The notes: generated by a model not told the origin, from the sequence alone. 64,000 bases of DNA from an uncultured Gemmatimonadaceae bacterium (GCA_964519125.1 CAZFIS010000001.1:3825-67824), one strand, 5' to 3'; shown: positions 36,720-59,435, counted from the first letter of the stretch. Translations and numbers: made by a program.

Positions 36720-36722
36720 ACC

Positions 36723-37858: not shown

Positions 37859-37900
37859 CGGTCCCGCCCTCCCTTCACATCCTCCGGGACGACGCCGAGC

Positions 37901-44159: not shown

Positions 44160-44230
44160 CGCGCTGACATGACAGCTCGCCAGTCGGGGACCCGTGACGT
44201 TCAGAGGCAAACAGCTGTGTCGTGTTCTCC

Positions 44231-44259
44231 TTGCGCACCGGGAGACCCCGTCGAATAAT
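44231..44259 (+). promoter_or_regulatory. Candidate internal sigma70-like promoter upstream of tssA-tssBC-hcp-tssEFG
   Basis: TTGCGC (44231-44236), a 17-nt spacer, then AATAAT (44254-44259). It lies in the 157-nt tssM-tssA gap, the largest non-coding gap inside the cluster. Confidence 0.25.
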
Positions 44260-44316
44260 GCACCTCCCCCCGAAGCGGGGTGAGCGCCGTAGAGGCCCAA
44301 ACCCACGAATCCGAGA

Positions 44317-45459
44317 TTGACCGAGAGGACCCTCCTGTCCACGCTCACGATGGATGACCGTCAGGCGGTCACGTTCGAGGCGCTCCTGCGCCCCCTGTCG
44401 GGTCCGGATCCGTCGGGCCGGCCTCTCCGGTACGACCCTATCTATGACCGGATCAAGGAAGCGCGCAGGGCCGATGATCCTGCTGCGCCGAGGGACATCT
44501 GGTCCAAGGATCTCAAAGTCGCGGACTGGAACACCGTCCGGCGCCTGTGCGAGGGGGCCCTGACCGGCGAGACCAAGGACCTGCAGATCTGCGCGTGGCT
44601 GGCCGAGGCGTGGCTCCACCTCGAAGGTCTGAGGGGGCTCCGGCGCGGGGTGGATCTGTTGCTCCAGATGTCGGAGAGCTACTGGGAGTCCGTGCACCCC
44701 GCCCTTTCGGAGGGTGTGGACTTCAGGGTCGCGCCCTTCGTATGGGTGAACGAGAAGCTACCCGCCGCCCTGGGCGAGATCCACATCGTGGCTCCTGAGG
44801 ACGAGCCGACCCTTACCGCGACCTGGAACGACTGGAAGAAGGCCCTCTGGCTCGACAAGGTGAGCGCTCGTCGCCCTCACGATGCCGAGACCCTCCGCGA
44901 GCTCGAGTCCTCGCCGACGCTTGCCGGCTTCCGGGCAAGGAGCGCGGAGACGCCCGAGTCGTTCTTCCGCGACAATCTCGCGGTGCTCGACGACACCATC
45001 GACGTCACGCGTGCGCTCGAAGCCTTCCTGGACGACCGCTTGGAGAAGCAGTCTCCGAGCCTGGTTCGCTTCCGGGAGGGCTTGGACGAGATCCGCACGT
45101 GGATCGGGGTGGTCGTGCGGGAGGGGACTTTCAGACCCGAGACGCAAGGGGAATCCGAAATGGCCGACGAGACGAGCCCCGAGGAGTCCGAAGCGACCGT
45201 GTCGGCCGGGACGGCCGAGCCCGGCCCGCGGGAGGGAGGTCGGATCCGAGGGCGCACGGATGCCTATCGCATGCTTCGCGAGGCCGCGGATTACCTGAAG
45301 GAGGTGGAGCCCCACAGCCCGACTCCGTATCTGGTCTTGAAGGCGGTCTCGTGGGGAGACAAGAGCCTGGACGACCTCCTGCGCGAGTTCGTGCGGGAAG
45401 GTCTCAATCTGGAGGCGCTGTTCACGTTCCTCGGCATCGAGCCGGATGATGAACGTTGA
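44317..45459 (+). CDS. tssA: T6SS protein TssA (ImpA N-terminal domain family)
   Basis: This is track ORF 44317-45459, starting at TTG. An alternative ATG at 44350 would give MDDRQAV.... The ImpA_N signature is present: GRPLRYDPIYDRIKEARRADDP....W..DLKVADW..V..LC..AL...TKDLQICAWLAEAWLHLEGLRGL..G..LL.....YW..VHP. Confidence 0.85.
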   Translation: MTERTLLSTLTMDDRQAVTFEALLRPLSGPDPSGRPLRYDPIYDRIKEARRADDPAAPRDIWSKDLKVADWNTVRRLCEGALTGETKDLQICAWLAEAWLHLEGLRGLRRGVDLLLQMSESYWESVHPALSEGVDFRVAPFVWVNEKLPAALGEIHIVAPEDEPTLTATWNDWKKALWLDKVSARRPHDAETLRELESSPTLAGFRARSAETPESFFRDNLAVLDDTIDVTRALEAFLDDRLEKQSPSLVRFREGLDEIRTWIGVVVREGTFRPETQGESEMADETSPEESEATVSAGTAEPGPREGGRIRGRTDAYRMLREAADYLKEVEPHSPTPYLVLKAVSWGDKSLDDLLREFVREGLNLEALFTFLGIEPDDER

Positions 45460-45561
45460 TGCGGCGAAGCGGGAGGGTGGGGTTCTCCTGATGTGTGTGG
45501 GTCATCGTCGCGTAGGCGGCGGGGCCGTCCTCGTTTCCGGCTGTCAGTGAGGAGGTTAACC

Positions 45562-46077
45562 ATGGCAGAAAGCACTCAGCACAAGCTCGATCGCGTCCGT
45601 CCACCGCGGGTCCAGATTACGTACGACGTGGAGATCGGAGATGCGATCCAGAAGAAGGAGCTCCCGTTCGTCATGGGTGTGATCTCAGACCTGGCGGGGA
45701 GCCCCGCGGAGGCTCCGCCGCCCATGAAGGACCGGAAGTTCATCATGATCGACCGGGACAACTTCAACGACGTGATGTCGGCCGTGGGCCCGCGGGTCGC
45801 GTTCCAGGTGGCCAACCGCCTCACGGAGGAGGACTCGAAGCTGAACGTCGAACTCACCTTTTCCAGCATGGACGATTTCGACCCCGCGAACCTGGTGCAG
45901 CAGGTGGAGCCGCTGCGCAAGCTCTTCGAGGCGCGTCAGCGTTTGAGCGACCTGCGGGCGAAGCTGGACGGGAACGACGAGCTCGATCGCCTGCTCAGCG
46001 AGATCGTCGAGAACACCGATGGCCTGAAGGAGATTCAGGACGCGACGGCCGAGCCGGAAGAGGAATCCGGGGAGTAG
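45562..46077 (+). CDS. tssB: T6SS contractile sheath small subunit TssB
   Basis: The ATG at 45562 follows GAGGAGG. It is in frame with track ORF 45493-46077. The signature reads RPPRVQITYDVEIGDAIQKKELPFVMGVISDLAG...RKFIMIDRDNFNDVM...LTFSSMDDFDPANLV. Confidence 0.9.
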   Translation: MAESTQHKLDRVRPPRVQITYDVEIGDAIQKKELPFVMGVISDLAGSPAEAPPPMKDRKFIMIDRDNFNDVMSAVGPRVAFQVANRLTEEDSKLNVELTFSSMDDFDPANLVQQVEPLRKLFEARQRLSDLRAKLDGNDELDRLLSEIVENTDGLKEIQDATAEPEEESGE

Positions 46078-46138
46078 CTCGCGGAGCCTGAATCCCACAA
46101 GACCAGCCAACGTCCATCATTGATCTGGAGAAGGTCCC

Positions 46139-47626
46139 ATGGCAACGAAGAAGGCAGAGTCCACCGACGGCGGAGGCGCGGCGACCGCGGAGATGAGCCT
46201 GCTCGATCGCATCATCTCGGAAGGCCGCATGGCCCAGGACGACGCCCAGGCCGCTCACGCGAGACACCTCGTGGGAGAGTTCGCGAGCCAGGTTCTCTCG
46301 GAAGAGATTACCGTCTCGGCCGACACGGTGGCGATGATCAACGCTCGCATCGCTCGTATCGACGAGCTGCTCAGCGCGCAGCTCAACGAGATCATGCACG
46401 ATTCCGACTTCCGGAAGCTCGAGGCCAGCTGGAGAGGGCTCGCGTATCTCGTATTCAACAGCGAGACCGGAACGCGCTTGAAGATCCGGGTGCTCGCGGC
46501 GAGCCAGAAGGAGGTCCAGGCGGACCTGGACAAGGCGGTGGAGTTCGACCAGAGCCGTTTGTTCAAGATGCTGTACGAGGAAGAGTACGGTACCTTCGGC
46601 GGCAATCCCTACAGCTGCCTCGTGTGTGACTACGAGTTCGGACGCCATCCGCAGGACATCGCACTGCTCGAGAAGCTCTCGAACGTCGCGGCGGCCGCGC
46701 ACGCTCCCGTCATCGCAGCGGCCAGCCCCCGGATGTTCGACCTGCAGAGCTTTACGGGGCTCGGCGGGCCGCGCGACTTGGCGAAGGTCTTCGAGAGCTC
46801 GGAGCTCATCAAGTGGAACTCGTTCCGCGCGACCGAGGACTCCCGCTACGTGGCTCTCGTCCTGCCGCACATCCTCATGCGTCTTCCGTACGGTCCCGAC
46901 ACGAAGCCGGTCGACGGCTTCGACTTCGTCGAGGAGGTGGACGGGCGGGATCACTCCAAGTACCTGTGGGGGAACGCGGCATGGGCGCTCGGGCAGCGCA
47001 TCACGGACGCGTTCTCGCAACACGGCTGGACGGCCGCCATTCGCGGCGTCGAGGGTGGCGGAATCGTGGAGGGGCTGCCTACGCACACCTTCAAGACGGA
47101 CGAGGGCGACATCGCGCTCAAGTGCCCCACGGAGATCGCCATCACGGACCGGCGCGAGAAGGAGTTGAGCGACCTCGGGTTCATCGCCCTGTGCCACTGC
47201 CAGGGAACGGACTACGCCGCCTTCTTCGGCGGTGCGACGGCGCAGAAGCCCACGGTCTACAACACGCCTCAGGCCAACGCCAACGCTCGGGTCTCGGCAC
47301 AGCTCCCGTACGTTCTCGCAGCGTCGCGGTTCGCCCACTACCTCAAGTCGATCATGCGCGACAAGGTGGGAAGCTTCATGACCCGGGCGAACGTGGAGAA
47401 CTTCCTCAACCGATGGATCTCGGATTACGTCCTCATCAACGACGACGCCCCTCAGTCCGCGAAGGCGAAGTATCCGCTGAGCGAAGCGCGTGTCGACGTG
47501 GTCGGGGTGGCGGGTAAGCCGGGCGTCTACTCGGCGACCGTGTTTCTGAAGCCGCACTTCCAGCTCGAGGAGCTGACCGCGTCCATGCGCCTGGTGGCCG
47601 AGTTGCCCCCGCCCGCGGGTGGCTGA
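46139..47626 (+). CDS. tssC: T6SS contractile sheath large subunit TssC
   Basis: 495-aa ORF with SLLDRII...IDELLSAQLNEIMHDSDFRKLEASWRGLAYLV...YGTFGGNPYSCLVCDYEF...AAAAHAPVIAAASP, the canonical TssC pattern. Confidence 0.95.
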   Translation: MATKKAESTDGGGAATAEMSLLDRIISEGRMAQDDAQAAHARHLVGEFASQVLSEEITVSADTVAMINARIARIDELLSAQLNEIMHDSDFRKLEASWRGLAYLVFNSETGTRLKIRVLAASQKEVQADLDKAVEFDQSRLFKMLYEEEYGTFGGNPYSCLVCDYEFGRHPQDIALLEKLSNVAAAAHAPVIAAASPRMFDLQSFTGLGGPRDLAKVFESSELIKWNSFRATEDSRYVALVLPHILMRLPYGPDTKPVDGFDFVEEVDGRDHSKYLWGNAAWALGQRITDAFSQHGWTAAIRGVEGGGIVEGLPTHTFKTDEGDIALKCPTEIAITDRREKELSDLGFIALCHCQGTDYAAFFGGATAQKPTVYNTPQANANARVSAQLPYVLAASRFAHYLKSIMRDKVGSFMTRANVENFLNRWISDYVLINDDAPQSAKAKYPLSEARVDVVGVAGKPGVYSATVFLKPHFQLEELTASMRLVAELPPPAGG

Positions 47627-47654
47627 TCGGATTCCCGGAGGCGGACGGGGGCGT

Positions 47655-47673
47655 GGGCCCGTGGTCCGGGCCC
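47655..47673 (+). other. GC hairpin in the tssC-hcp intergenic region (possible mRNA processing, stability or attenuation element)
   Basis: GGGCCCG-TGGTC-CGGGCCC forms a 7-bp all-GC stem with a 5-nt loop, 29 nt after the tssC stop. No U-tract follows. The hcp SD (GAGGAGG) lies 48 nt downstream. Confidence 0.3.
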
Positions 47674-47732
47674 GCCCCTCGCCGTCGAAGAACTGCCAAG
47701 GATGATTTCGAGAGCCACACGAGGAGGATTGG

Positions 47733-48218
47733 ATGGACATCGTTTTGATGAAGGTGAAGGACGTTCCGGGCCAGACGCAGATCAACGGCTACGCGGACTA
47801 CATGGAGCTGTTCTCATACAGCCACGGGATCGCGCAGCAGGTCACGGCCAACGTCAGCAACGCCGACCGCACGACCGGCCGGCCGATTCACCAGGACTTC
47901 GCGGTGACGAAGGACGTGGACAAGGCGACCCCCTCGCTGCTCCAGGGGTGCAACTCGGCGAACGTCTACAGCTCGGTGGAGATCCTGGTGGGCCGCAACG
48001 ACGACGGCAACATCATCAAGTTCTTCAGCTACACGCTGACCGACGCCATCATCTCGTCGATCTCCGTGAGCGGTGGAGGCGGCGGCAAGCCCGTCGAGTC
48101 CATCACGTGGAACTACAGCAAGATCGAGTGGACCTACTACGCGCAGAAGGAAGCGGGCGGCGCGGGCGGCAACGCGGTTGCCTCCTGGGATGTGGCACTG
48201 AACAAGGCTGCTAGCTGA
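47733..48218 (+). CDS. hcp: T6SS inner tube protein Hcp (TssD)
   Basis: 161-aa ORF with GAGGAGG 6 nt upstream. The sequence is Hcp-like: MDIVLMKVKDVPGQTQ..GYADYMELFSYSHGI...GRPIHQDFAVTKDVDKATPSLLQGC...I.W.Y.KIEWTY. Confidence 0.9.
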   Translation: MDIVLMKVKDVPGQTQINGYADYMELFSYSHGIAQQVTANVSNADRTTGRPIHQDFAVTKDVDKATPSLLQGCNSANVYSSVEILVGRNDDGNIIKFFSYTLTDAIISSISVSGGGGGKPVESITWNYSKIEWTYYAQKEAGGAGGNAVASWDVALNKAAS

Positions 48219-48226
48219 GCTTCACG

Positions 48227-48694
48227 TTGCTTCGCGACACGAGGTCCACGCAGGGAGCCCGGGCGCTGCTGTTCGACCGACTGGTCGATCTGGATCCGTC
48301 CGATCCGGTCGAGCAGCGGCCGCTCCGGGTTCTCTCGCTCGAGGAGATGTTGGAGTCCGTGCGGCGGGAGCTCGAGCGGCTTCTCAACACACGGTCTCCG
48401 ACGCCTCCCGAGGAGTTGGAGGGGAGGGAGTGGACGGTCCTCGATTGGGGCCTCCCCGACTATTCGGGCTGGTACACCCGCTCGGCTGTGTCCCAGGAGC
48501 GGCTGGCTCGACTCATCGAGGCGACGATTCGAGCCTTCGAGCCCAGGATGATCGACCCTCACGTGATTGTGAAGCCCACGGAAGGCAACGATCGCATGCT
48601 GATCGTCCACATCGACGGTGCTGTCCGGGTGGGCACGATGCTCGAGCCCGTCTCTTTCCCACTGGCGCTCGAAGGAGGGCCCTCACGGGGGTAG
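48227..48694 (+). CDS. tssE: T6SS baseplate protein TssE (gp25-like)
   Basis: 155-aa ORF with a TTG start 8 nt after the hcp stop. It has LLFDRLVDLDP...SVRRELERLLNTRSP...LPDYS and the GPW/gp25-like C-terminal part. Confidence 0.85.
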   Translation: MLRDTRSTQGARALLFDRLVDLDPSDPVEQRPLRVLSLEEMLESVRRELERLLNTRSPTPPEELEGREWTVLDWGLPDYSGWYTRSAVSQERLARLIEATIRAFEPRMIDPHVIVKPTEGNDRMLIVHIDGAVRVGTMLEPVSFPLALEGGPSRG

Positions 48695-48704
48695 CAAGGC
48701 GCAG

Positions 48705-50525
48705 ATGGCAGACGACGCGCAAGCGGAACTCCTCCGGTACTACCTGTCCGAGCTCACCTATCTCCGGGAGATGGGCTCGGCGTTCGCGGATGAATATCCC
48801 AAGGTCGCCAACCGGCTGGAGTTGAGCCCGGACGAGAGTCCGGACCCGCACGTCGAGCGACTGTTGGAGGCGTTCGCCTTCCTCACGGCGCGCGTCCAGC
48901 GCAACCTCGACCTGCAGTTTCCCGAGATCAGCTCGGCGCTTCTCGACCTCCTGTATCCCCACTACCTCACGCCCGTCCCGTCGATGACGGTCGTGCGCTT
49001 CGAGCCGGATCCGGAGCAGGGGATGCTGACGACCGGGTATGAGGTCCCGGCGCACGCGCCACTGTACGCGGAGGCTCGCGGCACCGGGGGGCTGTCCGCC
49101 AGGTTCCGGACCTGCTACCCGGTCACGTTGTGGCCCCTGCGGGTGACCTACGCCGGTCTCGAGTCGAGCAGCCAGTACGACTTCCTGGACGGGCGCAGCG
49201 ACATCGTCAGCGTCATTCGCATCCACATCGAAGTCGAGGGGATGGCACTCGAAGACCTGGAGATGACCTCGCTCCGCTTCTATCTCAACCGTGAGATGCG
49301 CGCAGCGACCGATCTCTACGAATTGATCTTCGCGCAGCTCGAGGGAGTGATGCTGCTGCAGGAGGGCTCGAGCCGACCCGTTGATCTGGGCTCGGGCTCG
49401 GTCCGCCCCGTCGGGTTCGGTCCGGACGAGGCTGTGCTGCCCTATCCGCGCCAGGCCCAACCCGGATATCGGCTCCTGCAGGAGTACTTCACGTTTCCGC
49501 GGAAATTCCTCTTCGTGGACGTGGACGGGCTGGACCGGGGGATGTCGGGCAACGCGTTCGATCTTCTACTCCTGCTCGGGCGGTCCCCTGAGACGGACCT
49601 GATGATCGACGCGGACACGTTCGCGTTGGGCTGCACACCCGCGATCAACCTGTTCCCGAAGACGACCGAGCCCGTCCGGTTGGACCAGACGAAGTCGGAG
49701 TATCGTCTGGTTCCCGACGTGCACCGGGAGGCCAGTACCGAGATCCACTCGGTACTTTCGGTGTCTTCGTCCATGGACGACGAGGAAGAGCCGAAGCGGC
49801 TCAGTCCCTACTATTCGTTCGGCCACGCGTCGTCGCGCGAGGTGGAAAGCGTGTTCTGGGTGACGCGGCGCGTCCCCACGGGTCGGCGGGAGATCCCCGG
49901 CACGCAGATGATGTTGTCGTTGGTCGACCTCGACTTCGACCCGCGAGTCCCCGCCGGTGAGACCGTCTACGCGCATACCCTGTGCACCAACCGGCGGCTC
50001 GCTGGGCAGCTCCCCGTGGGGGCACGGCTCACGACCGAGATCGGTGCCCCCGTGTCGTCTATCGAGACCCTCCACAAGCCCACGCCCCAACTCGATCCTC
50101 CGCTGGGTGGGGAGACACGCTGGCGGCTCGTCTCGCACCTGTCCCTGAACCACCTCTCGTTGGAGAACGGCCCGGAGGGGCTGGCAGCGCTCCGCGAGAT
50201 CCTGCTGCTGTACAGCGACTACGACAACAAGTCGGCGCATCGGCAGATCAACGGGATCCGCGAGATGCGCAGCCGCCCGGTCGTCGAGCGCCTCGGCAGG
50301 GAGGCGTGGAGAGGATTCGCTCGGGGCACGGAGGTGCGACTGGTCTTCGATCCCGCCGCATTCCCCGGCGCGAACCCGCTTCTGTTCGCGTCGACGCTGC
50401 GGCATTTTTTCGCGCTGTACGCGTCGATCAACTCCTTTACCCGGTTGGTGGTGGAGGACGCTCGCCGACCGGGTGAGATCTGGAAAAAATGGCCGCCGCT
50501 CGCAGGAACACGAGAGCTCCTGTAG
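48705..50525 (+). CDS. tssF: T6SS baseplate protein TssF
   Basis: Track ORF 48618-50525 is trimmed to the ATG at 48705. The TssF signature is LLRYYLSELTYLREMGSAFADEYPKVANRLEL...DPHVERLLEAFAFLTARVQRNLDLQFPEISSALLDLLYPHYLTPVPS. Confidence 0.9.
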   Translation: MADDAQAELLRYYLSELTYLREMGSAFADEYPKVANRLELSPDESPDPHVERLLEAFAFLTARVQRNLDLQFPEISSALLDLLYPHYLTPVPSMTVVRFEPDPEQGMLTTGYEVPAHAPLYAEARGTGGLSARFRTCYPVTLWPLRVTYAGLESSSQYDFLDGRSDIVSVIRIHIEVEGMALEDLEMTSLRFYLNREMRAATDLYELIFAQLEGVMLLQEGSSRPVDLGSGSVRPVGFGPDEAVLPYPRQAQPGYRLLQEYFTFPRKFLFVDVDGLDRGMSGNAFDLLLLLGRSPETDLMIDADTFALGCTPAINLFPKTTEPVRLDQTKSEYRLVPDVHREASTEIHSVLSVSSSMDDEEEPKRLSPYYSFGHASSREVESVFWVTRRVPTGRREIPGTQMMLSLVDLDFDPRVPAGETVYAHTLCTNRRLAGQLPVGARLTTEIGAPVSSIETLHKPTPQLDPPLGGETRWRLVSHLSLNHLSLENGPEGLAALREILLLYSDYDNKSAHRQINGIREMRSRPVVERLGREAWRGFARGTEVRLVFDPAAFPGANPLLFASTLRHFFALYASINSFTRLVVEDARRPGEIWKKWPPLAGTRELL

Positions 50526-51559
50526 TCGAGGAGCTTCGCGAGGGCGCGTACGCCTTCGATTTCTTCCAGGTGGTGCGTATCCTGGAAGCGATGGCTGTGG
50601 GCGCCTCACCCGTCGGCACGGGGTCCGATCCGTCGCTCGAGGCCGTGCGATTCCGCTCCGATCCGTCCTTGGCCTTTCCGGCCAGTGAGATCGTCGACGT
50701 GCGCCTGGGGGAGTTTCCGGAAGAGCCGGCCGAAGTGGTGGTCAGCTTCCTGGGACTGGCGGGCGAGCAGGGCCCGTTGCCGCGCCCGTTCACGGAGCTG
50801 ATCCTGCGACGGATCGCAGACCGGGATACGGCGGCGCGCGATTTCCTGGACATCTTCAACCACCGACTCGTTTCCCTGCTGTACCGGGCCCGCGAGAAGC
50901 ATCGCGTGGGCCTGCGGATCCAGCCGCCCGAAGAGAGCCGGCTCGCAGACATCGGCTTCGCCCTCGTGGGCCTCGGCGCCTCCCCTCTCCGGGACCGCAT
51001 GGGGTTCGCGGATCGCTCGCTTCTTTTCTATGCTGGTACCCTCTCCCAGGGGCGTCGTACGGCCGTAGGGCTGGAGGGCCTGCTCGCGGCGCACTTCCAT
51101 GCCGTGCTCGGAGCGCGGAGCGAGTATGACGGGGGCGTCCACGTCCGCGAGTTCGTGGGGCGCTGGCACGCGCTCGAACTCGATCAAGGGACGGCGCTGG
51201 GTGCCGTCGATGGCCATCGGGAGCTCGGCGTGGATGCCGTCCTCGGTCACCGGGTCTGGGACCAGCTCGGGATGATCGAAGTCGTACTCGGTCCCCTCGA
51301 TCTGGAGAGCTTCCAGCGCTTCCTGCCCGGAGGAGACGCCCTCGAGCCGTTGAGGGACATGGTCACCTTCTATCTGAGGGGTGACGTGGATTTCGTCATT
51401 CGCCTCGTCCTTCGCGCGGAGGACGTTCCCGCGACGGTGTTGACGGCCGGATCCGGGGCCGCGCGTCTGGGTCTGACTTCCTGGCTCAAGACCCGTCCGT
51501 TCCGGAACGACGCCGCCGATATCGTCCTCGGTCCGAGATCCAGCGCCCCCACGGTCTGA
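50489..51559 (+). CDS. tssG: T6SS baseplate protein TssG
   Basis: 356-aa ORF that overlaps tssF by 37 nt. The TssG N-terminal signature is YAFDFFQVVRILE....P.G.GSDP..EAVRFRSDPSLAFPASEI. Confidence 0.9.
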   Translation: MAAARRNTRAPVVEELREGAYAFDFFQVVRILEAMAVGASPVGTGSDPSLEAVRFRSDPSLAFPASEIVDVRLGEFPEEPAEVVVSFLGLAGEQGPLPRPFTELILRRIADRDTAARDFLDIFNHRLVSLLYRAREKHRVGLRIQPPEESRLADIGFALVGLGASPLRDRMGFADRSLLFYAGTLSQGRRTAVGLEGLLAAHFHAVLGARSEYDGGVHVREFVGRWHALELDQGTALGAVDGHRELGVDAVLGHRVWDQLGMIEVVLGPLDLESFQRFLPGGDALEPLRDMVTFYLRGDVDFVIRLVLRAEDVPATVLTAGSGAARLGLTSWLKTRPFRNDAADIVLGPRSSAPTV

Positions 51560-51575: not shown

Positions 51576-54500
51576 TTGCCCTCCGGAGCCAAACCCCTGA
51601 GCACGTCCGAATCGATTCTGAGGCGGGTGTTCAAGCTCGAGCCCGGAGAGGGCCGCAAGGTCCTGCTGTTCGCGCTGCTGGCCGGGCTGATCCAGGGCGG
51701 GGTCATGGTGGGGCTCACCGCTTCGGATACGCTGTTCCTGTCGAGGGTGGGATTCGAGAAGTTGCCGTTCGTCTTCATGGCGACGCCGTTCGTCATGCTG
51801 GCGTACGTGCCGGCGTTCGCCTTCCTCATCAGCCGTCTGGGAACCCCGCGTACGCTCGAGTGGACGCTGGTGGTGCTGGCGATCGGGGGCGGCGGGCTCT
51901 TCGTCTGGATCGCGCTGGCTTCGTCGGGCGGCTCAGCGGAGGGCGGGGTCGGGCTTGTCTACTACGTGGCCCGCATCTGGGCCGATCTGTGCTATACGGC
52001 CCTGTACAGTCTCTTCTGGAACTTCACGGACACGTTCTTCGACATCCAGGACGCGAAGCGACTGTTCCCCCTCTTCAGCGCCGGAATGGCCGCCGGAGCC
52101 ATGATCGGCGGTGGGCTGGTGGCCGTGATCTCCCAGACGATCGGAGTCGCGTGGCTCTACTTGTTCTGGTCGGCCATCGCGCTGCTCTCCCTTCCGGTCG
52201 TGGCCGGCATCAGGAGGCGGTTCGACATCCTGCAGGAGGGAGAGTTCGAAGGCGAGACCGGGCTGTGGGAGCAGTTGAAGGAGACGAGGGTCGCGCTCTT
52301 CCGCTCCCGCTTCGTGCTGATCCTGGTCAGCGCGATCGTCGCGGTCGTCTTCCTGAGCTCGATCAACGAATACGAGTACCTGCGGATCCTCTCAGGGCCG
52401 CTCAACGAGGCCCAACTGGGATCCTTGCTGGGTCGGCTCCTCGTCCTGGTGAACGTCTTCAACGTCCTCTTCAGCCTCTTCGTCTTCAATCGGCTGGTCT
52501 TGAGGGTGGGGGTGGGTAACGTCGCCATCCTCCAGCCGCTGACCTACCTGGCGGTCTTCTACTTCCTCCTGTTTCAGGGGGGGGTCGGAGCGGCGATCTT
52601 CGGGTTCGTCGCCTTCCAGGGCATCCTCCCCTCCATCGAGTACAACAACCAGAACTTTCTCTTCAACGCGGTGCCGCAGGCGGTCAAGCAGCAGGTGCGG
52701 ACCGCCGTGGAGGGACTCGCGGAGCCGCTCGCCACGGCCCTGGCCGGAGCCCTTCTCCTCTTGCTCGCGCGTTTCCTTCCCTCCGTGCGCATCGCCGCGC
52801 TCGGTTTCCTGCTGGCAGGTGGGTACCTGGGCATCGCCGTGCTGCTGAGGAACGCCTACCTCCCGTCTTTGGTGAAGAACCTGAGGAGAGGGTGGCTGGA
52901 CCTCTCACGGCCCGCCGCAGAAGCGCTCTCGGGGCTCGGGTCCGCGGAGGAGGCTCGGCTTCGGGAGATGGCCGCGCAGGGCGACGGCGAGCTCGCGCGG
53001 TGTGCGTTGAGGATTCTGTCCATCAACAATCCCCAGGCGGGGTTCAAGGCGACGCTCCAGTACCTGAAGAGGACGCCAGACGACAGGATCTCGGAGGCGC
53101 GGTTCTTCGTGGAGGCCCTGTTGGAGCGGGCCGGGCCGGATGCCACACGGGAGTTCCTCGACTGGGTCGACCAGGGGAGCGATACGCTGGGAGCGAGGTT
53201 CCTCGAGGAGATGGGAGGCCACGGGCTCATCATGCCCACCGAGGTGAAGGGTCTCGTCCGGTCGGAGGAGCCCGCCGAGGTGGCGGCGGCCGTGGTCGTG
53301 CTGTGGCGGTCGTGGGATCCCCAGGACAGGCTCCTCGCGGCGGAAGGGCTCGTACGGCTCCTGAGCGGCTCGGAGGCGGAGATCGTCGCGGGGCTGCGCA
53401 CCATCGGGAGGCTGCGCGACGAGACGCTGGCCCGGTTCGCGGCCTCTCATCTCGTCGGGGGGAGCGAGGCGGTGCAGCGCGAGGCGCTGGCTTCGTTGCG
53501 GAGCATCGTGACGCCGAACTCCACTGCGCTGGTTCCCGACATCCTCGACAGCCTCGCTCTCGTGGGCGACCGCGGGCAGTACGACGGGCTGGAGGTGCTC
53601 GGGAGGATCGCCGACCCTACGTGTATCGCGCGTCTGCTCGACGTCTCGGTCGACTTCTCTCCTCCCGTGCGGCGCAGCGTCCTGCGGGTCCTGGAGAGGA
53701 TGGGGCTGCGCAGCGTGCCGGCGTCCGTCGCCGTGTTCACGGATCGTCGCCACGCGTACCCCGCGCGCGCGATCGCTGCGCGCTTCCTCGGCACCGCGGC
53801 CAGCCCCCAGCTCGAAGCCTTATGGCCCGGCGTTATCCAGCGGGAGCTGGCGCAGGCCGACCAGTTCCGCTCCTTCCACCGCACGCTGACGGCCGTGTCG
53901 CTTTCCACGTCGGGCATCCGCATCCTGCGCCGTTTCTACCGCGACACGCAGGATCGCACGGTGGACTTCATCCTCGAGGTCCTGCACATCGCCGGCAGGC
54001 TCCCGTCCTTCGAGATGCTGTCGTCCTCGCTGCGGTCGGATCTCCCGAAGGAGCGGGCCAACGCCCTGGAGACCGTCGAGCAGGGTGTGCCGCGGTATCT
54101 CTTCAAGCGCCTGCGCTCCCTGCTCGTGGATCCCGGAGCGGCATCCGAGGCGGGGGCGAGCGAAGGCTTGACGGTGGGCCCGTCGGTCGAGGAGATCCTG
54201 GACGCGGCCCTGCAGAGCCCCTTCGCTTCGGAGGCGGCCGCGGCCGCCGACGCTTCGTGGGTCACCGAGAACCCCGAGATCCTGGCCAAGCTGCGCAGCC
54301 GCCTGGCGGACCTCCGCGGGGAGATCTACCGCGAGACCGTGGTCACCCTGGCGGCCGAAGGCCAGGAGGGGATGACCCCGGTCGACATCATGGACTTCCT
54401 GGCCGCGGCGCCGTTCTTCGACAACCTTCGCGTGGGCGACCTCGAGGAGATCGCCGTGCGCGCGGAGGTGATGGAGCTCGAGCCGGGAGCCTACCTCTTC

Positions 54501-54764
54501 CGCGAGGGTGAGCCGGCGGACCGTGCGTTCGTCATCGCCAAGGGTCGGGCGAGCGTGGAAGGAGAGGTCGTGGAGGCCGGCATCCTCCTGGGCGGCGAGG
54601 CGCTCGGGACGGCGGAAACCTATGCCTCCACGGGCGTCTCGGAGGGGGTAACGGTCGTGTGCGTCCGGTCCCGGCCTGTGATGGACCTCGCGAACGTGAG
54701 CTCTGCGCTGGGCATCGAGCTCATCCGCCATGCAGCGGGAGTGCACGGTGTCCGAGCGCTCTAG
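51576..54764 (+). CDS. Three-part fusion: polytopic transporter-like (MFS / ATP-ADP-translocase-like) membrane domain + HEAT-like repeats + C-terminal cyclic-nucleotide-binding-like domain
   Basis: 1062-aa ORF with a TTG start 16 nt after the tssG stop. Residues ~1-430 contain ~11-12 hydrophobic helices (the opening VFKLEPGEGRKVLLFALLAG... resembles TLC/Npt-type carriers). The middle ~500 aa are helical repeats (ARCALRILS, REALASLRSI, VRRSVLRVLERMG). The last ~120 aa (from 54390) form a CNB fold: FFDNLRVGDLEEIAVRAEVMELEPGAYLFREGEPADRAFVIAKGRASVE...LGGEALG. Confidence 0.75.
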   Translation: MPSGAKPLSTSESILRRVFKLEPGEGRKVLLFALLAGLIQGGVMVGLTASDTLFLSRVGFEKLPFVFMATPFVMLAYVPAFAFLISRLGTPRTLEWTLVVLAIGGGGLFVWIALASSGGSAEGGVGLVYYVARIWADLCYTALYSLFWNFTDTFFDIQDAKRLFPLFSAGMAAGAMIGGGLVAVISQTIGVAWLYLFWSAIALLSLPVVAGIRRRFDILQEGEFEGETGLWEQLKETRVALFRSRFVLILVSAIVAVVFLSSINEYEYLRILSGPLNEAQLGSLLGRLLVLVNVFNVLFSLFVFNRLVLRVGVGNVAILQPLTYLAVFYFLLFQGGVGAAIFGFVAFQGILPSIEYNNQNFLFNAVPQAVKQQVRTAVEGLAEPLATALAGALLLLLARFLPSVRIAALGFLLAGGYLGIAVLLRNAYLPSLVKNLRRGWLDLSRPAAEALSGLGSAEEARLREMAAQGDGELARCALRILSINNPQAGFKATLQYLKRTPDDRISEARFFVEALLERAGPDATREFLDWVDQGSDTLGARFLEEMGGHGLIMPTEVKGLVRSEEPAEVAAAVVVLWRSWDPQDRLLAAEGLVRLLSGSEAEIVAGLRTIGRLRDETLARFAASHLVGGSEAVQREALASLRSIVTPNSTALVPDILDSLALVGDRGQYDGLEVLGRIADPTCIARLLDVSVDFSPPVRRSVLRVLERMGLRSVPASVAVFTDRRHAYPARAIAARFLGTAASPQLEALWPGVIQRELAQADQFRSFHRTLTAVSLSTSGIRILRRFYRDTQDRTVDFILEVLHIAGRLPSFEMLSSSLRSDLPKERANALETVEQGVPRYLFKRLRSLLVDPGAASEAGASEGLTVGPSVEEILDAALQSPFASEAAAAADASWVTENPEILAKLRSRLADLRGEIYRETVVTLAAEGQEGMTPVDIMDFLAAAPFFDNLRVGDLEEIAVRAEVMELEPGAYLFREGEPADRAFVIAKGRASVEGEVVEAGILLGGEALGTAETYASTGVSEGVTVVCVRSRPVMDLANVSSALGIELIRHAAGVHGVRAL

Positions 54765-56805
54765 GCAGAGTCTCCGGGGCCTGACCCTCATGGTCCTCAC
54801 CCCGTGCTTGCTGTTCAGCGCGGCGGTCTCGGGGTGGGTGACGTACAAGGATCTCTACGACGTCATCCTGAACGACGGGTTCGAACAGAAGCTCGAGGCG
54901 GTGAGCACGGGTGTGGCTGCCTTCATCGACGGAGACACCCATCTCGCGTTGAGTCGGCCGACGCGCCTGACCGGGATCGCGGCGGATCCGTCGAAGCCGC
55001 TCCTGTGGGGACTGGACTCGGCGAACGATCGGCTCGTGACCATCGACGTGACGAACGGGGGTGCGACGCCGCTCGACACCGTCCCGGTGAGCGGCCTGAG
55101 CGGCCTCACCTACGACGCAGGGAACGCGCGCCTCCTGTCCGTGCGCCCTGCCACCGGGGAGTTGTTCGCGTTCGCGCCGTCCTCCGTCCGGCCCGTGCTC
55201 GTGGGTCACGTCCAGCCGGGTGCACGCGCTCTCGCCATCGACGCGTCGGGGAAGCACCTGGTGGTCGCGGGTCCGTGGGGGTTGAGAGGCTACACGCTGG
55301 CGGGGCCGAAGGGTGCGCCCACGCAGACCTGGACGAGCGAGACGAGCGTCGAAGCCGTCGCGGTGTCGCCTCGGACCGGAGCCTTGTACGGACTCCGGGG
55401 AGACGGGAGCGTCCTGGTCGCGGACAGCCTGGGCGCGCCGCTTCGGGAGGTGGGCGTCCTGAAGAGTACCGACGACGAGGGTGACCCCGGGCAGTTGCAC
55501 GAGGTGCGGGCGCTGGCGGCGAGCCCCGTCGCCCCCACCGTATTCGCGGCCGGAAGGCGCCTCATGGAGATCTCGCTCGACGACCTCACCGTCGAGGCCG
55601 AGCGGTTCCGGCGGGGGTACCGCAACGAGAATCTCCCGACCTACCAGGAGTACGTGGTGCCGATGCGGCGCATCAGGGACGCGCTGGACATCACGTACCT
55701 GTATACGCAGAACCTGGTGCCCGGGGACTCGATCGAGTACGTGATCGACAGCACACCGTTCGGCCCGGACTATTCGCCCATCGGCAGCCGGGAGGCGCTG
55801 GACACCGAGGCGGACGTGCGTGGCATGGACGCCTTGATGGAGCGGGGCTCCGTGTACTCGTCACGGATCGAGTACTCACCGGAGTGGGGCCTGCTGAAGT
55901 CGGCGTTCGCGCCGATCCTCGGGCACGACGGAAGGTCTGTGGGCATGGTCGGCACGGACATCTCCGTCTCCACGATCCGCGACCGGACGCAACTCGCCCT
56001 GGCCAAGGTCGGCCTGGTCACCGTCGTGATCCTCTTCCTCGGCGGGCTCGGCTCGCTGGCCATCTCCCTGCGCCTCGCCGGACCGCTGGCGGCCCTCCAG
56101 GAAGGGGCCACCCGCGTAGCCGCCGGCCGGGCGGGCGAGCCGATCGAGCTGCCCCGCCTGCGTGACCTCGCCGCCCTGACGAGCTCCTTCAACGAGATGA
56201 CGGACACCCTGACGTCCCTGGTCGACGAGTTGCACGAGGAAACCAGTCGGGTCGAGTCCATGCGGACCCGGAGACACCTGGCTCGCGAGTTGGCGCGGCG
56301 CGCGGCTTCGGCCGATCCGCTTCCCGACGGAGTAAGCGTGGAGTGGCGCGGGCCGAGCCCCCACGCGCCGGCTCCTTCGGGATTCGCCGTCGTGGGCGAG
56401 CCCCAACGCCCCTTCACCGCCGTGTGGCTCCGGCCGGAAGGCCCGGATGCTCTGGCCGGGTTGGCCGACCGGGAGGAGACCGCCTTGCTCGCCCGGCGGG
56501 CCGCGGAAGCCGAGCCGGCGTCGCCGGAGGCGCTGCTCTCGGCGCTGGAGCGGCTCCACGACGGGGAGGGCTTCCGCTTCGTGGTCGTCGACGCCGTGGA
56601 AGGTCGGGTGATCGTTTCCGCGGGCTCGCCCGTGCGGGCCGTCCTGGCGTCGGAGGGAGGGCGGGAGCGGCCCGTGGACCTGGCTCCCGGCCAGGCGTTC
56701 CGGGTGCCCTCCCGGTCCGCGCTCTCGCTCGTCCTGGGTTCGCCCGGTGCAGGGGACGCGCACGGGCCGGCCTGGGTCCTTCGCATGCGGGGGGCGACGG
56801 CATGA
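54730..56805 (+). CDS. Transmembrane sensor: periplasmic beta-propeller-like + Cache-like domains, TM, HAMP, C-terminal degenerate SpoIIE/PP2C-like domain
   Basis: 691-aa ORF that overlaps the upstream gene by 35 nt (an alternative ATG lies at 54790). It has an N-terminal TM helix. Blade-like repeats follow (LLWGLDSANDRLVTIDV, LTYDAGNARLLSV, LAIDASGKHLVVAG, VAVSPRTGALYGL). A Cache-like segment reads YLYTQNLVPGDSIEYVIDS...EWGLLKSAFAPILGHDGRSVGMVGTDISV. A second TM helix is followed by HAMP (AGPLAALQEGATRVAAGR...LTSSFNEMTDTL). The C-terminal ~190 aa align by eye to SpoIIE but lack the GGDFYD and GDVxGHG aspartates. Confidence 0.7.
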   Translation: MQRECTVSERSRQSLRGLTLMVLTPCLLFSAAVSGWVTYKDLYDVILNDGFEQKLEAVSTGVAAFIDGDTHLALSRPTRLTGIAADPSKPLLWGLDSANDRLVTIDVTNGGATPLDTVPVSGLSGLTYDAGNARLLSVRPATGELFAFAPSSVRPVLVGHVQPGARALAIDASGKHLVVAGPWGLRGYTLAGPKGAPTQTWTSETSVEAVAVSPRTGALYGLRGDGSVLVADSLGAPLREVGVLKSTDDEGDPGQLHEVRALAASPVAPTVFAAGRRLMEISLDDLTVEAERFRRGYRNENLPTYQEYVVPMRRIRDALDITYLYTQNLVPGDSIEYVIDSTPFGPDYSPIGSREALDTEADVRGMDALMERGSVYSSRIEYSPEWGLLKSAFAPILGHDGRSVGMVGTDISVSTIRDRTQLALAKVGLVTVVILFLGGLGSLAISLRLAGPLAALQEGATRVAAGRAGEPIELPRLRDLAALTSSFNEMTDTLTSLVDELHEETSRVESMRTRRHLARELARRAASADPLPDGVSVEWRGPSPHAPAPSGFAVVGEPQRPFTAVWLRPEGPDALAGLADREETALLARRAAEAEPASPEALLSALERLHDGEGFRFVVVDAVEGRVIVSAGSPVRAVLASEGGRERPVDLAPGQAFRVPSRSALSLVLGSPGAGDAHGPAWVLRMRGATA

Positions 56806-57206
56806 GCACGACGGTGACCCTGGCCGATCGCATCTTCCTCCTGCGTGGCCTGCCGGCGTTCTCGCGGCTCTACGACAGCGAGGTCGGCTCGATCGCCGCC
56901 GTATGCCGCGTGCGGACGTACGAGCCAGGAGAAACGATCTCCCGCCCCGGCCAGCCCCTCAGGCACCTCTACCTCGTCGCGAGCGGGCGGGTGCTCGACG
57001 AACGGGCTGGACCGCTTCCGGCGGTCTTCGGCGCCACCTCACTCCTCACCGGGCAGCCTCTGGACACGGCCCTGACCGCCGATCCGGAGGAGGGTGCCAC
57101 GTGCTTCCTGCTCGGCCGGGCGCACTTCTTCACGTTGGTCCACGAATATCCTCCACTCCTCGTGAACCTGCTGAACGAGTGGCGGGGCGGGTGGGCCGGG
57201 TCATGA
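56802..57206 (+). CDS. Small stand-alone cyclic-nucleotide-binding-like protein
   Basis: The ATG at 56802 overlaps the upstream stop (ATGA). It is in frame with track ORF 56343-57206. The CNB-like pattern is IFLLRGLPAFSRLYDSEVGSIAAVCRVRTYEPGETISRPGQPLRHLYLVASGRV...VFGATSLLTGQPLDTALTA. Confidence 0.7.
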   Translation: MSTTVTLADRIFLLRGLPAFSRLYDSEVGSIAAVCRVRTYEPGETISRPGQPLRHLYLVASGRVLDERAGPLPAVFGATSLLTGQPLDTALTADPEEGATCFLLGRAHFFTLVHEYPPLLVNLLNEWRGGWAGS

Positions 57207-58570
57207 CGATTCGACTCCAGAACCTGGTCATCATCCCTCCGATCTTTCTGATTCTGGCGCTCGCGGTCGGGTTCCTCGCCGATCGGGCGGCCAGGGAAGA
57301 GATCCTCTGGGGGCTCCACCAGGAGTCCGTGGCCCTCGCGGTCACGGTGGCGGACATGACGGGCGGGGCCACGATCGACCGCCTGTCGACGGGGGATGCG
57401 CTCGCGGAGCGGCGGGCGATGGCGCATCTCCGTGAGCTCGCTGGCCATGGCCAGGTGGAGGCCATCGTCCTCTATTCGCGCGCCGCGGGCCACGCCGTCC
57501 TCTCCTGGGACCGTGACAGCACCGCCCTTACGGTGAAGCAGGCGCTGTGGACCTCGAAGCTCACGAACCTGAAGAGCCAGGAGGTCGTGGGCGGTGTCGG
57601 GCCCTGGGGGCCGTATCCCGAAGCGCTCGTCGCGGCGGCCCCGATCTACGCCTCGGGCAACCCCTCGAACCCGCGAGGGGTTGCGGCCGTGATCATCGAC
57701 GCGAGCCGCATGACATCGGCTACCCAGGCGCTTCGGCGCGACTTCGCCCTGCTGGTGCTACTCGTGACCGGGCTCGGGATCGCGGCGGCGCTGTTCCTGT
57801 CCGTGCGGATCGGGCGGCAGGTAAGAGAGCTGGGACGTGTCGGCGCCACGGTCGCGGCCGGCGAGTACCGGGCTCCGGTCCAGGTTTCGGGGGTGAAGGA
57901 GGTCCAGGACCTGTCCAACACCCTGGGGACGATGGCGAGTATCCTGTCCGACGTGCTGTCCAGGGGCCGTCGCGCCCTGCTGGTCGGAGACGCCTTCCAA
58001 CTCAGCCACAACATGGCGGCTGCCTACAAGGAGGTACGCCTGGACGGTGCTCCCCCGCCCGAGGGATTGGAGGTCGGTTACAGCTCCCTGGGAGAGATCT
58101 CGCCGGGATGCTTCCACGGATGGACGGAAACTCCGCGCCATACGGTGCTCTGGGTCGGTGAGGTATCCGCGGGCGACTCCCTGGATCTCGCCATCGAGGC
58201 CGCCGCCGCGAACCGCGTGCTCGAGCGGGGACTACGGCATGGATCGCCCGAAGAGGTGGCCGGATCCATCTCGAACCTGTTCCACCTTTCCGCCCTCCAG
58301 ATCGCCTGGTTCACGCGTCCGATCGTCGGTGACCCCGAGGTCCGGGTCGCCGCCGGCACGGGAGCCCCCCTGACGAAGGGTGACTACTGCGTGATCCACT
58401 CGTTCCAGTCGGAGCACATGGATTCCCTCTCGGGCTCCCTTTCGCTCTTCAAGGATCTCCCCGCGGAGCAGGCGGCGAAGGAGGTCCCTCTGGCACTCCC
58501 CCGGACGTTCTCGGGTGCCTTGCTTCTCATTCGGCCGTTGCGCCCATCCTCTGAAGGAGACACATCGTGA
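57203..58570 (+). CDS. Transmembrane sensor: periplasmic domain, TM, HAMP, degenerate SpoIIE/PP2C-like domain (shorter paralogue-like partner of 54730-56805)
   Basis: The ATG at 57203 overlaps the upstream stop (ATGA). It is in frame with track ORF 56747-58570. There are two TM helices (LVIIPPIFLILALAVGFL and FALLVLLVTGLGIAAALFLSV). HAMP reads RIGRQVRELGRVGATVAAGEY...VQDLSNTLGTMASIL. The C-terminal part (GLEVGYSSLGEISPGCFHGW...VLWVGEVSAGDSLDLAIEAAAA...AAGTGAP...GDYCVIHSF) has SpoIIE-like spacing with the metal-binding Asp positions substituted. Confidence 0.7.
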   Translation: MTIRLQNLVIIPPIFLILALAVGFLADRAAREEILWGLHQESVALAVTVADMTGGATIDRLSTGDALAERRAMAHLRELAGHGQVEAIVLYSRAAGHAVLSWDRDSTALTVKQALWTSKLTNLKSQEVVGGVGPWGPYPEALVAAAPIYASGNPSNPRGVAAVIIDASRMTSATQALRRDFALLVLLVTGLGIAAALFLSVRIGRQVRELGRVGATVAAGEYRAPVQVSGVKEVQDLSNTLGTMASILSDVLSRGRRALLVGDAFQLSHNMAAAYKEVRLDGAPPPEGLEVGYSSLGEISPGCFHGWTETPRHTVLWVGEVSAGDSLDLAIEAAAANRVLERGLRHGSPEEVAGSISNLFHLSALQIAWFTRPIVGDPEVRVAAGTGAPLTKGDYCVIHSFQSEHMDSLSGSLSLFKDLPAEQAAKEVPLALPRTFSGALLLIRPLRPSSEGDTS

Positions 58571-59289
58571 CCCATCGGATTCGCCGTTCCGCGCGGCACA
58601 CCGTCCTCCTGATCGCCGCGATGAGCGCCTTCCTTCCGGGCACGGGGAGGGCACAGGAGGACTCGTCATCGGCGTGGTCGGTCGGCGCCGACGGTGAGCT
58701 CGTCTCGCAGTTCGTCTGGCGTGGGCTGGTGCTCAACAACCACCCGAGCCTCCAGCCGGAGGTCTACCTGGAGCACGGGAGCTTCGATCTCGGAGTCTGG
58801 GCCTCGTTCCCGTTCGATGGGAGCTACAGGGAGATCGATACGTACCTCTCGTGGTCACACAGCTTCTCTGCGGGCGAGCTCGACCTGAATGCCCAGGACT
58901 ACTACTACCCGCAGTATGCGGGGTTCTTCGACTTCAGCCAGGCCGCGGGGGGCCACACCGGCGAGCTGAGCGGGGCGTTCACGCCCTCCGTCGTGCCCCT
59001 GACGTTCACGCTCGCCTGGAATGCCTATGACGACCCGGACCACTCCCTGTTCGCGAAGGTGGGCGGCGAGCACTCCTTCGACGGCATCGTCGACCTGGAC
59101 GCCAACATCGGATTTCTCCTGAAGAACAGTCCCTACTACTACGGGGCGAGCGCCGGAGACGTGATGAACTACACGATCCGGGCGACGCGGAACTTCTCGC
59201 TGGCCCGGGTGCAACCGCACGTGTCGGTCGCCTTGACCCGCAGCCCTGTGCTTGGAAAGACCCTGTGGGTGTTCGCGGTCGGCCTGTGA
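58567..59289 (+). CDS. TorF-family-like outer-membrane beta-barrel (putative porin)
   Basis: Its GTG start overlaps the upstream stop (GTGA). It has a signal peptide (VLLIAAMSAFLPGTGRAQ). The motif SQFVWRGLVLNNHPSLQPEVYLEHGSFDLGVWASF resembles the TorF/Gcw_chp porin N-terminus (S.YvWRG......P..Q......G...G.W.S). Alternating beta-strand patterns run to a C-terminal aromatic residue (WVFAVGL). Confidence 0.65.
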   Translation: MTHRIRRSARHTVLLIAAMSAFLPGTGRAQEDSSSAWSVGADGELVSQFVWRGLVLNNHPSLQPEVYLEHGSFDLGVWASFPFDGSYREIDTYLSWSHSFSAGELDLNAQDYYYPQYAGFFDFSQAAGGHTGELSGAFTPSVVPLTFTLAWNAYDDPDHSLFAKVGGEHSFDGIVDLDANIGFLLKNSPYYYGASAGDVMNYTIRATRNFSLARVQPHVSVALTRSPVLGKTLWVFAVGL

Positions 59290-59304
59290 CGTAGTCGCGT
59301 GCCT

Positions 59305-59330: not shown

Positions 59331-59435
59331 GAAGGAGATACCCTTCCGCTCGACCCGACGGAACGTTCGCCCGGCTCCCTCCCTCCGGGTGGCCGTTTCG
59401 CGTGCAGCCGGATTCCTTCCTCAGGAGCTCGATCG

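Follow-up and report, generated by a model that had tools for sequence, protein, structure and literature searches.

The stretch of DNA analysed here, referred to as the window, comprises 64,000 nucleotides from an uncultured Gemmatimonadaceae bacterium (GCA_964519125.1 CAZFIS010000001.1:3825-67824). [quoted passage not shown] They probably account for three core genes out of the four in a conserved module for membrane signalling that is non-catalytic and works by protein binding, a reading to which we assign a probability of roughly 0.6. The fourth gene encodes a fusion of an NTT/TLC-like carrier, HEAT repeats and a cNBD-like domain (NTT-HEAT-cNBD). A non-catalytic role for the sensors is a reasonable reading because the loss of metal ligands is family-wide, and because the output domain of sensor 2 and the small cNBD are under purifying selection.

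An earlier reading of this DNA by a model working from the sequence alone (the original prediction) had described the three genes as a cassette of pseudo-enzyme signalling domains. The genes lie where it had placed them, and every motif string that it quoted was found at the expected residues. Its text leaves out the position of the cassette at the tail of the T6SS operon as well as the conserved quartet. It is this quartet with NTT-HEAT-cNBD, conserved and undescribed, and its insertion into a T6SS operon, that hold the main interest.

A conserved quartet of genes

Synteny was assessed by tblastn of the window proteins against all fetched loci. The order NTT-HEAT-cNBD, sensor 1, small cNBD, sensor 2 was found in every contig long enough to hold it (L001-L003, L006-L012), and it is still kept where identity has fallen to 28-30% in sensor 2 and to 32-36% in sensor 1. 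The small cNBD gene always stands directly upstream of the sensor-2 gene, and in two very short contigs a cNBD gene is again immediately 5' of it. The first protein of the quartet matches Pfam TLC (24.4 bits, cut-off 21) and cNMP_binding (27.4 bits), and HEAT_2 weakly. Its syntenic homologues, 39-84% identical, are encoded in L001-L003, L006 and L010-L012, and a C-terminal fragment is present at the contig edge of L009. The operon thus combines this fused architecture with a stand-alone cNBD two genes downstream. Decay of the whole cassette into pseudogenes was considered and is ruled out by dN/dS (the ratio of non-synonymous to synonymous substitution rates) of 0.07-0.26 everywhere outside the tail of sensor 1, together with open reading frames (ORFs) that are intact down to 28% identity.

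The nearest relatives of the window are metagenome-assembled genomes (MAGs) of Longimicrobiales (Gemmatimonadota), in which the quartet directly follows tssG. The order tssC-hcp-tssE-tssF-tssG-quartet is repeated in L001-L003 and L006. In a distant lineage (L011) the quartet precedes clpV-vgrG-tssK-tssL. A locus search with one of our alignments (A1) returned only four Longimicrobiales MAG contigs.

Degenerate output domains and a degenerate cNBD

Sensor 2 has 15 orthologues, all of about 455 aa. When 1.84 billion representative proteins were searched with a profile of its last 206 residues, only 53 clusters came up at E ≤ 0.001, and nearly all of these have the same length and layout. In the AlphaFold2 (AF2) model a transmembrane (TM) helix is followed by a periplasmic PDC/sCache domain, a second TM helix, HAMP, linker helices of low confidence and the C-terminal domain. 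For the N-terminal half, Foldseek against the PDB returned the Cache sensor domains of WalK, DcuS and CitA (TMt 0.57-0.65), and relatives of sensor 2 match Pfam sCache_3. The presence of HAMP in both sensors, as originally proposed, was borne out. Pfam HAMP (PF00672, cut-off 25 bits) gives the scores listed in Table 1 for the window proteins, is matched by 35 of 44 sensor-2 family members with a best E of 1.9e-10, and is precomputed for most sensor 1 homologues.

The original prediction had likened the C-terminal regions of both sensors to SpoIIE/RsbU phosphatases of the PP2C type. For sensor 2 this is upheld by structure. The modelled domain (predicted local distance difference test, pLDDT, 67-92 by block) runs βββ-αα-ββββ-αα-β, and its 12 secondary-structure elements stand in the same order as in bacterial PP2C, giving the αββα sandwich (β1-3, α1-2, β4-7(+), α3-4, β-last). 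Foldseek against the PDB matched it (E 4.5e-4, probability 1.0, 226 aligned columns) to 3ke6_B, a structure holding the RsbU (PP2C) and RsbW domains of Rv1364c from M. tuberculosis. This was the sole strong structural match able to cover the C-terminal domain. The product of TM-score and length corresponds to about 120 residue-equivalents at a root-mean-square deviation (rmsd) of 6.7 Å, which is too many for the RsbW part of about 130 residues, so that the match would be to the PP2C part of 3ke6_B. A PP2C/SpoIIE-RsbU fold for the output domain of sensor 2 is therefore supported, as far as a predicted model can support it.

To place the catalytic residues, a 42-sequence C-terminal profile of the sensor 2 family (A5) was aligned with hhalign to an RsbU profile. 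The latter was narrow, consisting of 18 real orthologues at 63% identity or more taken from the best 120 matches, and column shuffles served as controls (the -glob mode of hhalign gave a nonsense alignment). The two profiles were collinear over the entire PP2C domain, in the register that had been drawn by hand in the original prediction. The motifs GEISPGCFHGW (58091-58123, residues 297-307) and VGEVSAGDS (58154-58180, residues 318-326) are joined by two further remnants, LTKGDYCVIHSFQSE at 58370-58414 and FSGALLLIRP at 58508-58537. In this register the four metal-binding aspartates of RsbU are all replaced, as had been predicted: D137 by C303, D154 by E320, D274 (the Asp of SDG) by H399/S400/F401 and D325 (of the DD pair) by F436/S437/G438.

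These losses extend across the family. Among the 42 relatives, the D154 position holds Arg in 20, Glu in 4, Gln in 4 and Asp in none, no more than 10 keep Asp at the D137 position, T/L/F stand at the SDG position, and the last ligand position (G438) is Gly in 40. No acid is conserved at any metal-ligand position, and the most conserved acidic columns lie instead in the linker and helix α4. Remnants do survive in the places expected of a PP2C, namely GD in 10 of the 42 relatives, AGTG for AGH, and LxKGDxxVxxS for LEKGDMIVLFSDG. Against a 78%-identical orthologue the dN/dS is 0.24 for the PP2C-like domain and 0.18 for the sensor domain, and the output domain, like the small cNBD, is thus under purifying selection. 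The retention of a domain under purifying selection after its metal ligands have gone is the signature of a pseudoenzyme with a non-catalytic job, and for sensor 2 we consider this reading likely.

Could the domains still be enzymes with a non-canonical site, made up in sensor 2 of Cys303, His305, Glu320 and His399? His399 is invariant in the 15 orthologues and His in 30 of the 42 relatives, and the Cys, His and Glu residues are close to the former metal site. Even close orthologues vary at the other three positions, though (C/G/S at 303, H/Y at 305, E/Q/V/R at 320), Arg is the family majority at 320, and there is no conserved acidic or Cys/His set. Such an enzyme is very improbable, and the particular Cys/His/Glu/His metal site was rejected, since three of its four residues are variable among close orthologues.

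Equally hard to credit is the idea that the proteins are degenerate histidine kinases, with a HAMP-DHp-CA build (DHp, dimerisation and histidine phosphotransfer; CA, catalytic and ATP-binding) in which the EQFRT of relatives would be a decayed H-box. EQFRT does resemble HELRT, and Foldseek returns full-length histidine kinases over 420-475 aligned columns, but those matches have probabilities of 0.3-0.7, TM-scores of 0.17-0.19 and an rmsd of 20-45 Å, and are driven by the Cache, TM and HAMP parts. The linker holds no conserved His, and the order of 8 strands and 4 helices is unlike the Bergerat fold. HisKA (PF00512) and HATPase_c (PF02518) were matched by none of 44 members and hhalign to two kinase cores gave scores at noise level (8.9-10.6), and on these grounds a histidine-kinase identity was rejected.

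Sensor 1 has 23 homologues. Its AF2 model (mean pLDDT 82) places first a β-propeller and then a Cache-like domain between two TM helices, and the second helix is followed by HAMP, a long coiled coil and a C-terminal domain (residues 531-687). The strands of the propeller span residues 80-289, with a pLDDT mostly of 89-96 by block and two blocks near 80, and Foldseek relates them to YVTN/YWTD/WD40 propellers (E 1e-8 to 1e-10). BLASTP between sensor 1 and P0042, a member of the sensor 2 family, aligned the sCache-TM-HAMP part with E 7e-10, which indicates that the two sensors are paralogues. The start of sensor 1 is ambiguous (window 54730-54800): a start at the ATG of 54730 puts 35 nt of the gene inside its upstream neighbour, homologues start near MSERSRQS, corresponding to the GTG at 54748, and an identical database twin (P0018) is annotated as 671 aa, corresponding to the ATG at 54790. 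The true start may thus lie a few codons downstream of 54730.

The sensor 1 tail was modelled as βββ-αα-ββββ-ββ, mostly with a pLDDT of about 77-91 by block, which is the PP2C order minus helices α3 and α4. The sandwich is therefore only partly present, and its link to PP2C runs through homology to the sensor 2 domain. Here the motifs that had been compared with the phosphatase are PSGFAVVGEP (56374-56403, residues 549-558) and WLRPEGPDA (56425-56451, residues 566-574). When the C-terminal profiles of the two sensors were compared with hhalign they aligned in the expected register with E 0.004, or 6.9e-4 with three distant members added. The score reached 29, and 35 with the distant subset, where shuffles gave 10.3±1.9 and at most 15.4. 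By this profile comparison the two cytoplasmic output domains are homologues of each other. Against RsbU the sensor 1 profile was likewise collinear, in the same register as that of sensor 2, without reaching significance. The PP2C assignment of the sensor 1 tail is thus an indirect one, which would follow from the AF2 topology and from homology to the sensor 2 domain, and through this chain the pseudoenzyme reading is somewhat favoured for sensor 1 as well. Distant sensor-1 relatives (L010:6376-8532, L011:6644-8809 and P0032) retain WLAD/WMAD at the position of the PP2C GDV, LALASDG at that of the RsbU VLFSDG, and IADLG, all of which are lost in the window copy. This pattern suggests stepwise erosion of the active site within the lineage of the window.

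It is possible, although we think it the less probable outcome, that the sensor 2 domain works alone, while the C-terminal 160 residues of sensor 1 are decaying and the protein signals through its HAMP and coiled coil, for example as a heterodimer with sensor 2. The tail has a dN/dS of 0.58, compared with 0.13-0.26 elsewhere in the protein, no residue is invariant past L521, helices α3/α4 are lost, and one homologue (P0031) ends early. On the other side, nearly all homologues down to 29% identity keep the domain at full length, it is modelled with a pLDDT of about 80-90, and its dN/dS is still below 1.

In cNBDs of the canonical PKA/CRP kind the phosphate-binding cassette reads FGE[LI][AG]L....PR[ST]A, and its Glu and Arg hold the cyclic phosphate. 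The small cNBD protein passes the Pfam cNMP_binding model (PF00027) with 29.4 bits against a cut-off of 27.5 (E 7.7e-7), and its own cassette, FGATSLLTGQPLDTALTA (residues 76-93, 57027-57080), aligns to the pattern without gaps, with Ala in place of the Glu and Leu in place of the Arg. This agrees with the original prediction, and both residues are missing from all five of the homologues aligned, where the pattern is FGA/FSV...P[LV]xxx. The homologues from four other loci are 36-64% identical. The dN/dS of the small cNBD is 0.20. Judged from these alignments, the two phosphate-contacting residues have been lost throughout the family and not just in the window copy, and canonical binding of cAMP or cGMP by the cNBD proteins is therefore improbable.

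Several results weigh against the reading of these genes as a PP2C-derived, non-catalytic module tied to the T6SS. The profile alignment to Pfam SpoIIE/PP2C (PF07228, PF13672) that the original prediction had suggested failed for both sensors, for 44 relatives and for 7 distant sensor-1 tails, and no PP2C match was obtained in Pfam, NCBIfam or PDB sequence searches with the sensors or the family profiles (A3, A5). NCBIfam SiaA matches the TM/HAMP part, and beyond the HAMP region the family is recognised by none of the Pfam or NCBIfam models tried. Of 24,736 Pfam models the family consensus matches SpoIIE alone, and with E 0.04 and 14.3 bits this match falls short of the cut-off of 25. The alignment of A5 to RsbU has an E of 0.1-0.15 and a score of 16.8, compared with 12.0±2.1 and a maximum of 18.2 for the shuffles (z about 2.3), and some column shuffles outscore it. 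For PP2C ancestry the sequence comparison is not significant: it agrees with the structural assignment and proves nothing alone. In structure, only a single PP2C stands among the Foldseek top 50 for sensor 2. The tail of sensor 1 had no direct structural match, its Foldseek lists (PDB, BFVD) being filled by β-propellers, so that the structural comparison proposed in the original prediction succeeded for sensor 2, with the RsbU domain of Rv1364c, and was swamped by the propeller for sensor 1. Two helices short and fast-evolving, this tail may be a vestige. Finally, the quartets of L010 and L012 have no T6SS genes within 10 kb. A role in the T6SS would therefore be lineage-specific at best, and the occurrence of the quartet with or without such genes nearby points to an autonomous module which in some lineages has been placed in or beside T6SS clusters.

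Much of the same evidence bears on whether the C-terminal domains belong to a separate α/β sandwich family, analogous to PP2C and never phosphatases, in which case the replaced aspartates would be the product of a forced alignment. This is in keeping with the lack of a significant sequence or profile link to SpoIIE/PP2C, and with a shorter domain in which about 25 residues, compared with about 60 in RsbU, separate the AGH turn from the SDG strand. We nevertheless regard it as unlikely. The Foldseek probability to an RsbU-type PP2C is 1.0 and the order of the 12 elements is identical, two independent profiles are collinear with RsbU in one register, SpoIIE is the sole Pfam model touched, and motif remnants stand in the right places, including the WLAD/WMAD and LALASDG of the distant sensor-1 relatives. 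We therefore continue with PP2C-derived pseudophosphatase domains as the preferred reading.

The operon and its neighbourhood

The features discussed are collected in Table 1. Five genes on the + strand directly follow tssG, namely the quartet and a gene for a Gcw_chp protein. The NTT-HEAT-cNBD gene begins 17 nt past the tssG stop, and the start and stop codons of the last four genes overlap (ATGA, ATGA, GTGA). From this arrangement sensor 1, the small cNBD, sensor 2 and Gcw_chp are predicted to be translationally coupled at the 3' end of the T6SS operon, and in Longimicrobiales the same holds for the members of the quartet among themselves. A perfect GC-rich hairpin (GCGGGTCCGGCG-tgcg-CGCCGGACCCGC, window 59290-59340) lies 16 nt past the Gcw_chp stop. 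Between tssG and that stop there is no comparable gap, which is consistent with a single transcription unit. The T6SS cluster itself, on the same strand, lies upstream of the quartet. The window is GC-rich (about 68%), and the stretch was found in salt-marsh sediment metagenomes.

Table 1. Coordinates of the quartet, its domains and neighbouring features in the window
Feature	Coordinates	Strand	Basis
NTT/TLC-like 12-TM carrier with HEAT repeats and C-terminal cNBD-like domain, 1062 aa (quartet gene 1)	51576..54764	+	Pfam TLC, cNMP_binding, HEAT_2
Sensor 1, 691 aa: TM, periplasmic β-propeller, Cache-like, TM, HAMP, coiled coil, degenerate PP2C-like domain	54730..56805	+	Verified ORF, translation, AF2, Foldseek, homologues
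Sensor 1, periplasmic β-propeller, about residues 77-290	54958..55599	+	AF2, Foldseek, weak Pfam DUF4394/DUF6923
Sensor 1, Cache/PDC-like domain, about residues 300-412, followed by TM2	55627..55965	+	AF2 α-β-β...β-β topology; BLASTP
Sensor 1, HAMP domain, residues 445-494	56062..56211	+	Pfam HAMP, E 2.6e-5, 24.9 bits
Sensor 1, C-terminal degenerate PP2C-like domain (putative), residues 531-687	56320..56790	+	AF2; hhalign to sensor 2 domain
Stand-alone cNBD-like protein, 134 aa, degenerate phosphate-binding cassette	56802..57206	+	Verified ORF; Pfam cNMP_binding, family alignment
Sensor 2, 455 aa: TM, sCache/PDC, TM, HAMP, linker helices, PP2C-like pseudophosphatase domain	57203..58570	+	Verified ORF, translation, AF2, orthologues
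Sensor 2, periplasmic single Cache/PDC domain, about residues 35-170	57305..57712	+	Foldseek; sCache_3 Pfam in relatives
Sensor 2, HAMP domain, residues 200-246	57800..57940	+	Pfam HAMP, E 0.0034, 18.1 bits
Sensor 2, PP2C-like pseudophosphatase domain (predicted), residues 283-448	58049..58546	+	AF2, Foldseek, hhalign, residue census
Gcw_chp/TorF-like outer-membrane protein	58567..59289	+	Pfam Gcw_chp, E 9.6e-7
T6SS cluster: clpV, vgrG, tssK, tssL, tssM, tssA, tssB, tssC, hcp, tssE, tssF, tssG	30891..51559	+	Pfam
Intact PPM/PP2C Ser/Thr phosphatase	19229..20089	+	Pfam PP2C_2, E 5.9e-11; motifs; PDB matches

The Gcw_chp gene ends the operon in Longimicrobiales only (L001-L003, L006-L009) and does not follow the quartet in L010-L012. 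In these three loci the 3' neighbours are different and include proteins of about 900 aa that have no known family. An extra membrane protein of 232 aa with a POPDC-like cNBD is encoded inside or beside the module in L010 (3081-11500) and L012 (1682-10767), as are arginine/ornithine decarboxylases and methyltransferases, a gene content that hints at a link to polyamine or amino-acid metabolism. Within the T6SS cluster of the window, vgrG is followed by a MORN-repeat ORF (34789-36333), whose listed start overlaps vgrG and whose real start is probably later, and by an ORF of 495 aa with no Pfam family (36371-37858). Both are possible T6SS effector or adaptor genes.

The PP2C at 19229-20089 had been described as the intact one of the window, and it is indeed complete. 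It carries the RxxNQD, ADGVGG, SDG and GGTDN motifs, and its matches in the PDB are tPphA (1e-27), PstP (1e-23) and the T6SS phosphatase PppA (5.5e-17). The gene sits about 11 kb upstream of clpV. Among the window ORFs scanned we saw no PpkA-like kinase or FHA protein and no match to STAS or HATPase_c, and the cassette holds none of the latter two. The original prediction had proposed partner switching or scaffolding in place of catalysis. Its non-catalytic part is supported here, while strict partner switching of the Rsb type is not, since the module has neither a STAS nor an RsbW-like gene alongside it.

Known systems and a possible mechanism

Among the closest published counterparts of sensor 2 is CT589 of C. 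trachomatis (PMC4552016), a paralogue of the membrane RsbU (CT588) that is without the residues for metal coordination and for which no role is known. Like CT589, sensor 2 spans the membrane, with one domain in the periplasm and, in the cytoplasm, a PP2C-like domain without Mn2+/Mg2+ residues, and it too has a paralogous sensor built in the same way. CT589 is however still recognised as PP2C-like (IPR001932) and is paired with an active RsbU and RsbV/RsbW, whereas here, on a comparison by description only, both paralogues appear dead, are unrecognised by Pfam and have no accompanying STAS/RsbW. With phosphatases of the RsbU/SpoIIE type (PF07228; SiaA, and the RsbU of Rv1364c, PDB 3ke6) the sensors share the order sensor, HAMP, coiled coil and PP2C. 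They differ in the absence of the four metal-binding aspartates and in falling below every family threshold, and also in their deletions: sensor 2 has lost the flap, along with two strands, from the segment that leads from the AGH turn to the SDG strand, and sensor 1 has lost α3/α4.

NTT-HEAT and NTT-HEAT-cNBD proteins are widespread, are often followed by a cNBD gene and are functionally uncharacterised (Major, Embley & Williams 2017, PMC5381601). In the quartet the first gene encodes precisely this architecture, with a stand-alone cNBD in the same operon. Compared with the operons of that study, two sensor genes are interleaved here and the stand-alone cNBD has lost its phosphate-binding residues. 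HAMP or PP2C partners of NTT-HEAT-cNBD are unmentioned in PMC5381601 (the word HAMP occurs 0 times), and in the literature searched no later paper has added a function for the family.

A PP2C-like domain that works without catalysis is known from RssB, the σS adaptor of E. coli (PMC6546054), whose C-terminal domain has no phosphatase activity and works by protein binding. RssB differs in being a soluble response regulator, while in the quartet it is transmembrane HAMP receptors that carry such a domain as their output.

For the T6SS, regulation in Gemmatimonadota was the subject of no study that we found in the literature searched. The TagQRST-PpkA-PppA-Fha1 module of P. aeruginosa is an envelope-sensing threonine-phosphorylation module that controls the T6SS and includes a PP2C-family fold. 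The quartet resembles it as an accessory module encoded with T6SS genes, and a PppA-like PP2C is encoded upstream of clpV. Unlike it, the cassette contains no kinase or FHA protein, its PP2C-like domains are apparently dead and fused to receptors, and the module also exists with no T6SS nearby.

On these grounds we infer that neither sensor is a phosphatase. HAMP and the coiled coil would relay the binding of a periplasmic ligand to the PP2C-derived domain. RssB uses its PP2C-like domain to bind proteins, with a change of conformation, and by analogy the domain of the sensors would switch between conformations and thereby take up or let go of a protein partner. Such partners would most likely be the co-encoded cNBD modules and the HEAT scaffold that the NTT-like protein carries, and in the genome of the window the output probably tunes the assembly or firing of the putatively co-transcribed T6SS. 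More speculatively, and at rather long odds, the four proteins might form one inner-membrane complex, in which the HAMP receptors read two periplasmic cues and gate or reposition the NTT carrier and HEAT scaffold through nucleotide-blind cNBDs, a phosphorylation-independent T6SS trigger recruited in Longimicrobiales. If true, the complex would be a functional counterpart of TagQRST-PpkA-PppA-Fha, and would open a first way into the function of the NTT-HEAT family, which has stood uncharacterised since 2017, and into that of pseudophosphatase sensors of the CT589 type.

Dead-PP2C membrane sensors (CT589) and NTT-HEAT(-cNBD) proteins have each been published, neither with a known function. In the literature searched we found no description of the quartet and no paper linking its pieces to each other or to the T6SS. 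In the quartet these two separate unknowns are fixed operon partners across distant lineages, together with a cNBD stripped of its nucleotide-binding residues. The sensors would add a family to the bacterial pseudoenzymes, and the quartet is a candidate for a new kind of accessory T6SS control in Gemmatimonadota.

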